Origin: Malacoraja senta
Taxonomy: Eukaryota
Assembly (NCBI GenBank): GCA_038087875.1
Contig: CM075987.1
Location: 24,120,001 to 24,184,000 of the forward strand
Direction: 5' to 3'
DNA length: 64,000 nucleotides
The notes beneath the pieces were generated by a model, which saw nothing but the letters and a program-made list of their open reading frames with translations, was not told the DNA's origin and did no database searches. Positions within the stretch are counted from its first letter, which is position 1; the number at the start of each line of letters is the position of its first letter. The position numbers were made by a program, and so were the translations under genes. Below, piece by piece: positions 631-27,753 of the stretch.

Positions 631-1657
631 CTAAGTTCGCCTCCTCTCTCCGACGAGAGTTCTGTAACATCCTCTCCTCAAGGTATTTCGCAGTCACTTC
701 CGTTTGAGCACTGGGCTTCATTCCCATTTCTCTCTTGCAATCAGATCACTGAAGATGACAGGAAAGAGGTCGGGTTCATCTAAAATGCACAAGTTTGGGG
801 TTTGATGAAATATTTTCCACACGCCTTTTGGGTACAAACTCTGACAGTACTCAAGAAGTTTGATGGCAAATGAAAAGAGCCTGTTTAATTAGCATCTAAT
901 CCACCATCTTGAAATTTATTCTCTCCACAAAGCTAGCAACGTTGATGGCTGTGTTTATAAGTTCATAGGTTCTAGGAGCAGAATTAGTCCATTCGGCCCA
1001 TCAAGTCTACTCCACCATTCAATTATGGCTGATCTATCTTTTCCTGTCAACTCCATTCTCCTGCCTTCTCCCCGTAACCCCTGACACCCGTACTAATCAT
1101 TGGTTTATGGCTGTTAGTAAGTATCTCAGTGAGACTACCAGCAGAAGGGGGGTTCACTAATAAAGGTGAGAGTTGGATTTATTCAGGAGGTCTCGCCAGG
1201 ATATAGGAGGAGTGGGTAAGCAGTGGAACAGTGATCAATGAACCACTCAGGGGAAAGACCAGAGGAAATAAACCAGTGCTTTTTAAAGAGACACAAGAAA
1301 CTGCAGATACTGTAATGTGATTGAAAAATCCCTCCCCGGATGCTGCCTAACCCGCTGAGTTCCTCCAGCATAGGACATAGAACACAGAACTGTACAGCAC
1401 AGAAACAGGCTCTTCAGCCCTCAATGTCTGTGCTGAACATGATGCGAAGGATGGCACGGTGGCGCAGCGGTTTAGTTGCTGCCTTACGGTGCTTGCAGCG
1501 CCAGAGACCCGGGTTCGATCCTGGCTACGGGTGCTTGTCTTTACGGAGTTTGTATGTTCTCCCCATGACCTGCGTGGATTCTCTCCGAGAACTTCGGTTT
1601 CCTCCCACACTCCAAAGACGTACAGATTTGTAGGTTAATTGGCTTGGTATTAAATGT

Positions 1658-1709
1658 GGGGTCAAGGTAAGAGCGTTCACTTCACAGCCCTGTTTCCACC
1701 AATCTTTCC
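1658..1709 (+). ncRNA. Minimal HDV-like (CPEB3-like) ribozyme candidate
   Basis: P1 GGGGTC/AGCCCT, P2 GGTAAGA/TCTTTCC, P3 GCG/CAC, L3 TTCACTT, GT, short linker, C-CAA joiner. Confidence 0.55.
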
Positions 1710-1832
1710 GCCACCACACACAAGCACAAGAAGCGACAAGACAGACACCATTGTATGCAGATGCCGAGAAGTGTGTTCATCTCCGGATGAACAACTTCTA
1801 ATCTTGTGTGTGTGGACTCGATAAGAAGAAGA
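1658..1832 (+). mobile_element. Short ribozyme-headed retroposon, family A copy 1
   Basis: Imperfect TSD TGGTATTAAATGT / TGGTACTAAAGT; ends in ATAAGAAGAAGA; second copy on minus strand at 27079-27260. Confidence 0.8.
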
Positions 1833-1989
1833 TGGTACTAAAGTAAAAAAATGTTTTTTTTAATTGTCCCTGGTGTGGGTTAGTGCTAATGTGCGGGGAT
1901 CGCTGGTCGGCGCGGACACGATGGGCTGAAGGGCCTGTCCCTAAACAAAAAACTAAAGGACAAATCTTGTCTGCCTACACATAATCCCT

Positions 1990-2370
1990 CTAAGTAAGTA
2001 AGTAAGTAATTTTATTGGCCAAGTATTCACATACAAGGAATTTGCCTTGGTGCTCCGCCCACAAGTAACAACATGACACACAGTGACAGTTACGAACGAC
2101 TCAGAAAACACTAAACATTAATAATAATAAAACATTAATGATAGAACACCATTGATCAAGCATGTGAACCAACAAAATACCAGATCAAAGGGATGCTACA
2201 GATTTTTGGCTGTTGAGTAGATGGATAAAAACTGTGGATAAAAACTGTTTTTATGTCTGGCTGTGGCAGCTTTGACAGTCCGGAGTCGCCTTCCAGAGGG
2301 AAGTGATTCAAAGAGTTTGTGGTCAGGGTGAGAGGGGTCAGAGATGATCTTGGCCGCTCGCTTCCTGGCC
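1990..2370 (-). mobile_element. Rex1/Babar-like LINE 3' end
   Basis: (TAAG)n tail plus reverse-strand 'LFESLPSGRRLRTVKAATARHKNSF' type coding remnant. Confidence 0.65.
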
Positions 2371-3784
2371 CTACATATTCCCTACATATCCATATTCCTC
2401 CCCAAGAGTCTTTTAAATGCCCCTATTGTGTTAAATGCCACGACCATACCACTTTGTGCTTTGCTCAATCCTTTATAGGAGGAAAATTGCCTCTTTTTTT
2501 ACTTCTTTAATTTAGTTTGTACTGCCAAACTAGATTGCTGGGATTTAAGGACTGTTGCACATGGACTCCTAAATTTTAACGCTATTTTTAAATTATTACC
2601 ATTTACAATACATTTTGAAATATCTTTTCATAATCCAGAGAGGAACAAAGATGGTTCTTGTGCGTTGCCACAAAAATGAAACCTTAAAAAACCACGATAG
2701 AGCTAATTTAAAAATAGGGAGGAGATTTTACCACAGCTGTGAAAATGTACTGATATCTCCATCGCCGAAATCTTATGTACAGCAGAACTGTGAATGACAG
2801 AATCAATAACTCTGCTTGCTAAAATGGATGGGTGTAGAAATGCGTCATTCATTCTGAATGCTAATCGCAATGTAGCAACTAGATGTTGTTCCTCTGACTT
2901 CATAGTTCGTAGGAGTAGAAATAGGAGCAGAATTAGGCTATTCTGCACATCAAGTCTATTCCATCATTCAATCATGGCTGATCTATCTCTCCCTCCCAAT
3001 CTCTCTGGCAATCTCCCCATAACCCCTAACACCCGTACTAATAAAAAAATCTATCTATCTCTGCCTTAAAAATATCCATTGACTTGTCCCCCGCAGCCTT
3101 CGGTGGCAAGGAATGTTCACAAACGGAGTACAATGCAAATCCAGCTCCATGTTTTGTGTTTATTGCCCATGAACAAAGATTAGTTTTTGAGCTTTCTCCA
3201 CTTTCCAACACATTACTGTGATAACTGAGGGGGCCTTCACTTGAACTATTAAACTATTAATATTAAACTATTAAACTATGCATGCATGCTTTAATAAACT
3301 TTGAGGTACTGAGGATTGCAAAGAAACAGTTATCATGGAACGTCCATTATTATTTTTTTCAATTCCATAGCTGAAAGCTAACAAAATATGCACATATCAG
3401 GTCAGCAATTGCCAGGTCAGCAATTAATGATTTACAATATCAGCAGAAAGCCAAATGTTTAAGGAGTAGAGACTTGTGTTGATTTTTCTTAATAAGGGAT
3501 TTGTAACTTTTTTTTTGCCAAATGCCCTTGAAATATCAATCAGTAGGTATGAAGGCTTGATTTCACATTCCAGCAGGCTATGAAGAAAATAATTCTCCAC
3601 ATCCCTCAAGAAAAAAAATCAGTGGTCATTGCGACTATTGAAAAGGATTAGAATACAGGACAAGACATTTGTAAATATTTGTGTTTAATGTTTGCAATTC
3701 CATATCATTTCTCTATGACAGTGTGCGTCGAGATAATATTTTATATCCAGACTGTGTTTCATTTTGACCAAAAAGGGATCGTTG

Positions 3785-7283: not shown

Positions 7284-7381
7284 ATGTGTGTGCGCGTGTG
7301 TACGTGTGTATGCTGTATGTGTGTGTGTGCGTGTGTTTGTGTGTTTGTGTGTGTGTGTGTGTGTGTGTTTATGTGTGTGTT

Positions 7382-7412
<31 letters not shown>

Positions 7413-7461
7413 GTGTATGCGTGTGTGTGTTTGTGTGTGTTTATGTGTGTGTGTTTGTGTT

Positions 7462-7496
<35 letters not shown>

Positions 7497-7660
7497 ATGT
7501 GTGTGTGTGTGTGTGTGCGTGTGTGTTTGTGTGTGTGTGCGTGTGTTTGTGTGTGTGTGTGTGTGCGTGCGTGTGTGTGTGCGTGTGAGTTTGTGTGTGT
7601 GTGCGTGTGTTTGTGTGTGTGTGTGTGTGTGCGTGCGCGTGTGTGTGTGTACGTATGTAT
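7284..7660. repeat. Degenerate (GT)n microsatellite
   Basis: Directly visible. Confidence 0.95.
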
Positions 7661-26600: not shown

Positions 26601-27078
26601 ACTGGCCCCCCTTCATCATGTATCTGTACACTGTGGATGGCTTGATTGTAATCATTTATTGTCTTTCTGCTGAGTGGTTAGCACGCAACAAAAGCATTAC
26701 CTCAGTACACGTGACAATAAACTCAACTCAAATCAACTGGCTGAGTTACTCCAGCACTTTGTGTCCTTTTCGTAAACCAGCATCTGCAGTTCCTTGTTTC
26801 TACCTCGGAGATATCATTGAGCTTGTATGAATCATCTTATTTTTCCTCCATAATATTTCAAGTCAAAAGTTGATTTACTAGAAAAAGCCAGAAAAAGAAG
26901 ATAAACTGGAAAAGAATTGTTCAAATAAGTTGTGCAATTATTAGAAAAATTATAATAATCATGTTTGACTAAAATGTCGATTTGCTTGAAAATCTGGTTT
27001 AGCATAAAAAAAAAGCCATAGAAGCTAGGAACAGGAACAGGGCAGTTGAACATTTGACCCTGGTTCTCTGATCAATAT

Positions 27079-27260
27079 TCTTCTTCTTATCGAGTCCACA
27101 CACAAGATTAGAAGTAGTTCAGCCAGAGCTGAACACACTTCTCGGCATCTGCGTACAATGGTGTCTGTTTTGCGCTTCTTGTGCTTCTTGTGCGAGGTGG
27201 TGGAAAGATTGGTGGAAACAGGGCCGTGACGTGAACGCTCTTTCCTTGACCCCCCCCCCC
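27079..27260 (-). mobile_element. Short ribozyme-headed retroposon, family A copy 2
   Basis: Perfect 11-bp TSD CTGATCAATAT (27068-78, 27261-71); reverse-complement match to 1658-1832. Confidence 0.85.
27202..27253 (-). ncRNA. Minimal HDV-like (CPEB3-like) ribozyme candidate
   Basis: Minus strand GGGGTC AA GGAAAGA GCG TTCACGT CAC GGCCCT GT TTCCAC CAA TCTTTCC; P2 is a perfect 7 bp. Confidence 0.65.
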
Positions 27261-27753
27261 CTGATCAATATGACAATGACCAATTTTACTTTGGAGTCAC
27301 GTTAGTGACTACGTGAAGAAGACCCGTCAGGGCGCATGCGCATCATTACGTCTGACGCATTGGCGCCCGGCAGCAAGAAGACGGAGCTCCTCCTGCAGGT
27401 GAGTAGTTTAGAGCTCCACCAAAGTCGGGGAGACTTTGGAGGAGTTAGTAAAAAGTAGAAAAATTGTTGCTGTATGTTTTTCCCCACAATACAGGAACAA
27501 GGAAAAAATTATCAAGGTGCAGGCGTGCTACGGACAAGGAGAGAGAGAGCTGCGGGAGCGCAGTCTCTGAAAGGCAGCCTGTCACCTCTGGGGAGTCGCA
27601 AGCCGGTAGCGGTGCGGCGACAGACTTGGCACTCCCAAGTGCCCAGCCGGGTACACAGCCAACGCCATTCGGGCATTAGGCATAAGCCAAGTCTGTCAGG
27701 CCCATTGACTCCACAGAGTCGGGCCAGGAGAGTCCCGTACGGGACAGGATACC

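Follow-up and report, generated by a model that had tools for sequence, protein, structure and literature searches.

We looked at the structure and origin of a short mobile element, family A, in the genome of Malacoraja senta. Its copy 1 occupies positions 1658 to 1832 (+ strand) of a 64-kb stretch of contig CM075987.1 (GCA_038087875.1, positions 24,120,001 to 24,184,000 of the forward strand), and this whole stretch of 64,000 nucleotides is called the window below. The 175-bp unit, which has full-length matches genome-wide, is probably a non-autonomous retrotransposon that lacks long terminal repeats (non-LTR) and resembles the short internally deleted elements (SIDEs) of Drosophila. By direct reading, copy 1 starts with GGGG at 1658, within GGGGTCAAGG, and ends in GACTCGATAAGAAGAAGA at 1832. 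On the same strand, it is bordered by a target-site duplication that reads TGGTATTAAATGT on the left (1645 to 1657) and TGGTACTAAAGT on the right (1833 to 1844). This duplication of 13/12 nt is imperfect, with one mismatch and one absent base, and comparison with intact copies of the host repeat showed that these carry TGGTATAAATGT once. The host is a short interspersed nuclear element (SINE), a putative V-SINE. Its left part (1449 to 1657, + strand) consists of a tRNA-like head, in which A- and B-box-like words were recognised by eye, and a conserved body, and its right part lies at 1862 to 1942 (+ strand). ARAGORN called no tRNA in 1400-2000. Across the window the host family recurs at high density, 31 more copies being present at 70-90% identity; the left part aligned to 31 other copies and the right part to 19. 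In five intact copies, TGGTATAAATGT is directly followed by AAATTGTCCC and the 175-bp unit is absent. Because the two halves run unbroken in these copies, the unit is younger than its host SINE. Between the right duplication and the remaining host sequence lies a 17-nt A/T-rich stretch, AAAAAAATGTTTTTTTT (1845 to 1861, + strand, A7-TG-T8), which is missing from the same five copies. An earlier note on this DNA, made from the sequence alone, had proposed an insertion into a SINE with an imperfect duplication of about 12-13 bp, later than the SINE itself, in which the first base after the duplication is the first paired G of a ribozyme stem, P1. The duplication, the uninterrupted host copies (n=5) and the GGGG at 1658 heading a fold of hepatitis delta virus (HDV)/CPEB3 type bear out each of these points, and the 3' end was also placed correctly, with the tail GATAAGAAGAAGA finishing at 1832.

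Copy 1 is composite, with a 52-nt head, a linker and a 3' module related to a long interspersed nuclear element (LINE). The head (1658 to 1709, + strand) is a probable HDV/CPEB3-type double-pseudoknot ribozyme without the P4 stem, as judged from its match to the Rfam family RF00622, a segment-by-segment parse and covariation. In the commonest form of family A, P1 (1658-1663 with 1686-1691) reads GGGGUC/GGCCCU and makes six pairs, of which the first is a G-U, and the target duplications abut its first G (G1). J1/2 is AA (1664-1665), P2 is GGAAAGA/UCUUUCC with 7/7 positions paired (1666-1672 with 1703-1709), P3 is GCG/CGC (1673-1675 with 1683-1685) and loop L3 is UUCACGU (1676-1682). They are followed by the GU strand of P1.1 (1692-1693), a ribozyme linker (1694-1698) and the J4/2 segment CCAA (1699-1702), where C1699 is the putative catalytic C; all these segments lie on the + strand. 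J4/2 of HDV-like ribozymes carries a CNRA motif, the catalytic C being followed by N-A-A. P4 is dispensable in HDV-like ribozymes, and members of this class that lack it are reportedly active. Minimal HDV-like ribozymes were reportedly described by Riccitelli in 2014. About 8% diverged from the commonest family A form, copy 1 is old and dead. Pairing is lost at three places in its ribozyme (1668, 1684 and 1686), the last being a C-A at 1663/1686 in P1; contigs from the runs of four other organisms mostly have letters that pair at 1684 and 1686.

The linker (1710 to 1759, + strand) is rich in CAC/CAAGAAG words and varies in length among copies, with one indel between copy 1 and a second copy in the window. 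The LINE-derived 3' module (1760 to 1832, + strand) holds the end of the open reading frame (ORF) of the partner LINE, a 3' untranslated region (UTR) of about 30 nt and the tail. In 30 LINE fragments, the 3' end runs collinear with these last ~73 nt: the ORF closes with DAEKCVQLWLNNI and a stop, then comes TCTTGTGATGTGGACTCGATAAGAAG, and the shared part comprises the last ~14 codons, a ~30-nt 3' UTR and an (AAG)n tail. The tail of copy 1, GATAAGAAGAAGA (1820 to 1832, + strand), is a short (AAG)n repeat. At one 3'-anchored locus, L064, upstream coding sequence ending in EHLLKCPQLENQCTAADLAAYNEDAEKCVQLWLNDI and a stop was found, and a genome search with this peptide gave about 45 hits at 73-99% identity together with a much larger family at about 50-55%. 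The 3' module also contains a 14-bp hairpin (6+8 bp; 1767 to 1799, + strand; loop 1782-1785, inner stem 1775-1781 with 1786-1792). In copy 1 its minimum free energy is -22.5 kcal/mol (z -3.32, 0/200 shuffles as stable), and in a consensus-like copy its z score is -1.81. This predicted hairpin is likely the recognition site of the LINE reverse transcriptase. Copy 1 has a U-A at 1780/1787 versus a G-C in the family, a variant to which we give little weight because it is rare. One other copy has the hairpin variant of copy 1, GTTCATC/TCCG, without a compensating change.

Copy 2 of the window (27079 to 27253, - strand) is full length and 90% identical to copy 1 from end to end. Its P1 and P2 are intact, and a single C-A mismatch occurs in its P3. 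On its 5' side (27261 to 27271, - strand) and its 3' side (27068 to 27078, - strand) stands ATATTGATCAG, a perfect 11-nt duplication, and seven extra G (27254 to 27260, - strand) precede the canonical GGGG at the 5' junction. Extra G between the duplication and GGGG were also seen in L033 and L057, and may reflect non-templated addition or slippage at this junction.

To place these two copies among their relatives, the host genome (1.94 Gb) was searched with the 175-bp query, which gave 2014 first-look candidates, 40 of them scored. All 40 scored matches started at query position 1-3 and ended at 172-175, and 27 covered exactly 1-175. Among 30 fetched loci, 27 showed the GGGG start beside unrelated flanks, with mostly clean duplications of 10-12 nt, and three pairs of these loci are duplicates, with flanks in common. 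In the genome, the exact 5' 21-mer is present 1174 times and the exact 3' 19-mer, tail included, 711 times; reversed controls gave 0. For a census of 5' ends, the first 60 sites on contig C1 with the exact 3' 19-mer were aligned by script and by eye. The same G starts the element in 48 of these 60 copies (41 clean, one with an internal head deletion, four bearing a point change among their first four bases, and two that are probable). Five copies are short by 5-10 nt at the 5' end, several with microhomology, and in another five the truncation reaches further, to 89-92 in three of them, near 62 in one and to 141 in one. The last two are a LINE 3' end and an unclear copy that holds a nested insertion. 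In none of the 60 does the element extend upstream of G1. Among the 51 copies with a recognisable head, a simple script detected 35 whose 5' end directly adjoins a duplication with at least 8 matching bases, and copies without nested inserts were 114-192 bp long. The exact 5' word was present in 16 of the 60 3'-anchored copies, which leads to a rough capture-recapture estimate of ~4,400 copies. The earlier note had read the common boundaries of the two window copies as those of a mobile unit rather than of a random LINE truncation, and had suggested a histogram of 5' ends. The 40 full-length matches, the census, with 48 of 60 ends at one G rather than broadly scattered and none upstream of it, and the lack of collinearity between the LINE and the 5' 100 nt uphold that view.

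We then compared the head with ribozyme families. At the gathering cut-offs of Rfam, which is 35 bits for RF00622 (CPEB3_ribozyme), nothing matched in the whole window. In 20 of 20 less decayed family A copies, RF00622 matched the 5' end at the same place with 20.6-31.9 bits, and one family A copy exceeded the cut-off with 36.3 bits. A search of the genome with RF00622 yielded ~102,000 rough first-look candidates, of which 59 were scored: 51 of these had E <=0.001, 39 were above the cut-off and the best reached 64.2 bits. The same search of 14 control genomes gave 0 hits. In seven of the best-scoring matches, a hit to the middle of a LINE ORF follows 2.05-2.10 kb downstream, and in two a C-terminal hit follows after ~3.1 kb; the related LINEs are therefore ~3.1 kb long, single-ORF and ribozyme-headed. 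An intact relative on contig C4 has a 1008-aa (amino acid) ORF, and at its 5' end RF00622 scores 40.7 bits (E 3.6e-9), P4 stem included. Its ATG is ~60 nt 3' of the ribozyme and its product matches Exo_endo_phos at residues 33-70, where a fragment scored 24.0 bits (cut-off 24.5), which suggests an apurinic/apyrimidinic (AP) endonuclease at the ORF start. In Protein Atlas the LINE N-terminus fell in Exo_endo_phos-type clusters only, which bear no clade name. The open frames reach 1008-1014 aa, and the layout appears RTE-like. LINEs of the RTE clade carry one ORF of ~1000 aa that encodes an AP endonuclease ahead of the reverse transcriptase, with no ORF1, very short UTRs, a total of about 3.2 kb and a short repeat tail. 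The related LINE protein is 50-56% identical to that of the partner family, and its ribozymes are homologous to the family A head. Twenty heads were fetched (L124-L143; 45.8-64.2 bits) and fall into at least four types with distinct P1, P2, P4 and downstream sequence. Seven type-I copies show the GGGG start at G1 beside unrelated flanks; for types II-IV, this analysis found no linked LINE or short family. L123 (G000:C4:35489300-35490500, with the element on the - strand) and L134 (G000:C8:937595-937728) are LINE copies of otherwise full length whose complete ribozyme is preceded by 3 or 4 partial copies, in tandem, of its first ~26 nt (GATCAAGGTAGAAGCGTTCACGTCGC). These repeats meet at GATC, which both P1 strands have in common; this suggests that slippage or template jumping took place at the 5' end.

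The heads of family A and of the LINEs were next aligned and examined for covariation. In this alignment, 90.9% of cells pair, versus 39-45% when partners are slid by 1-3 columns. Both-side changes occur in 13 of 25 pairs, and the observed values were reached by 0 of 500 shuffles. P2 has 96% of its cells paired and shows both-side changes across types in four of its seven pairs; between family A (GGAAAGA/UCUUUCC) and LINE type I (GGUAGAA/UUCUACC) it differs by three double changes. The ribozyme reading of the 5' end in the earlier note thus finds support in the sub-cut-off RF00622 matches at the 5' ends of 20/20 copies and in LINE homologues that are above the cut-off and covary.

Altogether, we read family A as a SIDE-like non-coding, non-autonomous retrotransposon whose 5' end is set by ribozyme self-cleavage and which is mobilised by a LINE, and we give this reading a probability of about 0.72. 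It is SIDE-like because it joins a 52-nt ribozyme head, a variable linker and a LINE 3' end; we hold a chimeric origin to be equally possible as an internal deletion of the partner LINE. For the 5' end, self-cleavage is the most likely cause on the proposed model. A family A copy would be transcribed within a longer host read-through transcript, and the ribozyme (P1, P1.1, P2 and P3, with no P4) would fold and cut directly 5' of the first G, freeing an RNA that starts at G1. The protein of the partner LINE, presumably the mobilising one, would recognise the 3' hairpin and tail and nick the target, and target-primed reverse transcription up to the very 5' end of the RNA would then produce the 10-13-bp target duplications. 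The sharp 5' end and the duplications would arise because reverse transcription runs full length. Since the anatomy matches that of R2/R1 SIDEs and of L1Tc/NARTc, described below, we infer release by cleavage.

Several observations weigh against this reading. P4 is absent in family A, with five nucleotides, UUCCA, where the LINE types have P4 stems of 5-8 bp. J4/2 is C-C-A-A directly before the 3' strand of P2, versus CGAA or CUAA in the LINE ribozymes, and the word ACCAA before that strand is also found within the P4 loop of LINE type I; there is a residual chance that an alternative alignment, in which the true J4/2 is deleted in family A, is the right one. In a permissive Rfam scan of 601 bases, RF00622 matched the 5' end of copy 1 with 17.5 bits and E 0.07, and the 20 family A copies scanned were all under the cut-off. 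When the 52 nt were folded with nested pairs only, P1 and P3 were not recovered (z +0.60, 142/200 shuffles as good), and this fold favours pairing of the P2 5' strand with UUUCC of the linker, a possible misfold. The covariation set comprised 17 sequences, 15 of them distinct, all of them repeats from a single genome, and those same sequences also served to write the structure. The partner-LINE copies examined were all 5'-truncated and degraded, the longest being ~1.05 kb and ending near the YADD motif. In the search for a full-length partner LINE, C1101 and L100/L099 were all cut near YADD, ~1.05 kb from the 3' end, and a mid-ORF protein search gave few partner-family hits, all in short frames. 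C7 was considered as the upstream part of the partner LINE and rejected, as it is no LINE and its apparent upstream homology is due to other repeats. An autonomous LINE with the exact ribozyme of family A was not found either, as 12 of 12 exact 17-mer hits lacking the usual next base were family A. Finally, a sharp 5' end is also expected from a fixed transcription start.

This last point leads to another explanation, in which the 5' module is the relic of a disabled LINE ribozyme that has lost P4 and does not cleave, and the uniform end comes from transcription starting at G1, for example from an internal promoter like Pr77 of L1Tc. The missing P4, the sub-cut-off scores of the 20 copies, the CCAA of J4/2 and the unfavoured nested fold all agree with it, and the head of L1Tc is documented as a dual promoter and ribozyme (PMC3383444). 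Against it, 7/7 pairs of P2 survive the three double changes that set it apart from the LINE ribozyme, and the G-U closing pair of P1 is retained; we count these against a relic because an unconstrained one is not expected to keep such pairs in its commonest form. No tRNA, 5S or 7SL head was found in 1400-2000 either, where Rfam gave no such match at E up to 10 and ARAGORN gave no tRNA. For the same reason we rejected the identity of family A as an RNA polymerase III SINE, which it resembles in size only. P4-less HDV-like ribozymes are also reported to exist (PMC10879173). On balance, we consider the relic explanation unlikely. That the likeness to the HDV/CPEB3 fold comes from chance or composition, the head having some other role such as a protein-binding site, is already very unlikely: copy 1 alone, with its E of 0.07, would allow it, but 20/20 copies matched at the same place, the homologous heads that bear P4 score as much as 29 bits above the cut-off and the control genomes gave 0 hits, and pairing falls to 39-45% with slid partners. 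That the copies are 5'-truncated LINE insertions or DNA-level duplications sharing a truncation hot spot is refuted, since, real as the truncated census copies and the segmental duplicates with common flanks (L009/L011, L025/L026, L079/L080) are, the 5' 100 nt hold no LINE 3' sequence and do not run on into the LINE 3' end from which the last ~73 nt come, the LINE having coding sequence where family A has linker and ribozyme, and flanks differ and duplications are their own in most copies.

Ribozyme-headed LINEs and their short parasites are already known from insects and trypanosomes, and family A is a further SIDE-like element. In Drosophila, R2 SIDEs and R2/R1 hybrid SIDEs consist of a 5' HDV-like ribozyme and a LINE 3' end and are mobilised in trans, and their cleavage was shown (Eickbush & Eickbush 2012, PMC3414825). 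They are like family A in that a ribozyme is joined to a LINE 3' end, in the use of target-primed reverse transcription and in a ribozyme that differs from that of the LINE mainly by compensatory changes. In contrast to family A, which is dispersed in thousands of copies, they occupy fixed sites in ribosomal DNA with few to tens of copies (PMC3414825). Their partner is R2 or R1, whereas here it is of the ~3.1-kb single-ORF AP-endonuclease type, and their ribozymes were shown to cleave, whereas that of family A is predicted to do so, without P4. In trypanosomatids, a common 5' HDV-like ribozyme in L1Tc and NARTc, and in TbRIME/SIDER, frees the element RNA from co-transcripts (PMC3185411, PMC4035085). 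The likeness is that of a dispersed LINE and a short derivative with a 5' HDV-like ribozyme; the LINE clade and the host kingdom are different, and the 77-nt head of L1Tc doubles as a promoter. RTE and baggins elements also have 5' HDV-like ribozymes (Ruminski et al. 2011, as cited in PMC6765202) and no promoters of their own (PMC6765202). The related LINEs described here have an RTE-like layout, with a 5' ribozyme, ~60 nt, one AP-endonuclease-first ORF, ~3.1 kb in all and a stop ~30 nt before a short repeat tail. Their heads appear CPEB3-like, in contrast to the insect RTE/baggins ribozymes, to judge from CPEB3 being the best Rfam family. Lastly, P4-less HDV-like and theta ribozymes of microbiomes and phages share the double-pseudoknot core with a reduced or absent P4 (PMC10879173), but these minimal ribozymes are bacterial or phage and lie beside tRNAs, whereas the one in family A heads a eukaryotic retroelement. 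Family A adds to these systems an example from a vertebrate genome, present in thousands of copies, whose head of 52 nt without P4 is unusually small. For annotation, elements like family A would escape SINE finders based on tRNA, 5S or 7SL heads, and the Rfam cut-off misses the P4-less form.

The closest likeness is to the mammalian CPEB3 intronic ribozyme (RF00622), which has the same fold, nearly the same core, AGCGUUCACGUCGCGG(C/A)(C/U)CCCUGU, and the LINE-type J4/2 CGAAU. By our own count on the alignment, the L139 type of LINE head matches 51 of 60 positions of the Rfam CPEB3 consensus (positions 19-78, P4 stem included). The CPEB3 ribozyme is a single copy in an intron of CPEB3, whereas those described here are multi-copy 5' ends of retroelements, with family A lacking P4 and being mostly under the cut-off. 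We tentatively propose that the mammalian CPEB3 ribozyme did not arise within mammals and could be the domesticated 5' ribozyme of an RTE-like LINE lineage or of its short derivatives. On that view, family A would in addition show that a ribozyme of this type withstands the full loss of P4 in a eukaryotic mobile element. HDV-like ribozymes have only six invariant nucleotides in common (PMC8256844), which we count as pointing the other way from the close likeness to CPEB3. Because the LINE heads and CPEB3 match closely, a retroelement origin of the CPEB3 ribozyme is directly testable; the LINE heads could provide its missing outgroups, and the origin to be tested is that an intron captured the 5' end of a retroelement. 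As weak negatives, the open-access literature searched contained nothing on HDV-like ribozymes in cartilaginous fishes, and none of the open-access titles and abstracts found derives the CPEB3 ribozyme from a retroelement.

Some additional observations were made on copy 1 and on other loci. Contigs of the four runs mentioned above were compared with window positions 1000-2600, a region made almost wholly of repeats, and none of those listed spans the insertion, the apparent joints being other copies of the host SINE. At L001 (G000:C5796:81925-85099), the insertion of copy 1 was found with 100% identity and identical flanks, and no empty allele; because both insertion and flanks are identical, L001 is probably a haplotig or a duplicated assembly piece. 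A family A copy at G000:C11:24249166-24249200, ~127 kb from the window, carries the rare linker variants of copy 1 (G after the P2 3' strand, and CAAGCAC), and these shared letters hint that both belong to a small subfamily. The three census copies cut at 89-92, L050, L078 and L085 (G000:C1), are truncated within 3 nt of each other just ahead of CACCATTGTATGCAG, which could mark either a hot spot of truncation or another start. Exact 3' 19-mers at G000:C1:245574633, 245578963 and 245583293 (+ strand) are spaced by exactly 4,330 bp and therefore point to a tandem unit containing the element or the LINE tail. Finally, many short matches to linker words of the CACACAAGCAC type were found on both strands at ~7340-7620 of the window, which suggests a tandem or microsatellite-like array.

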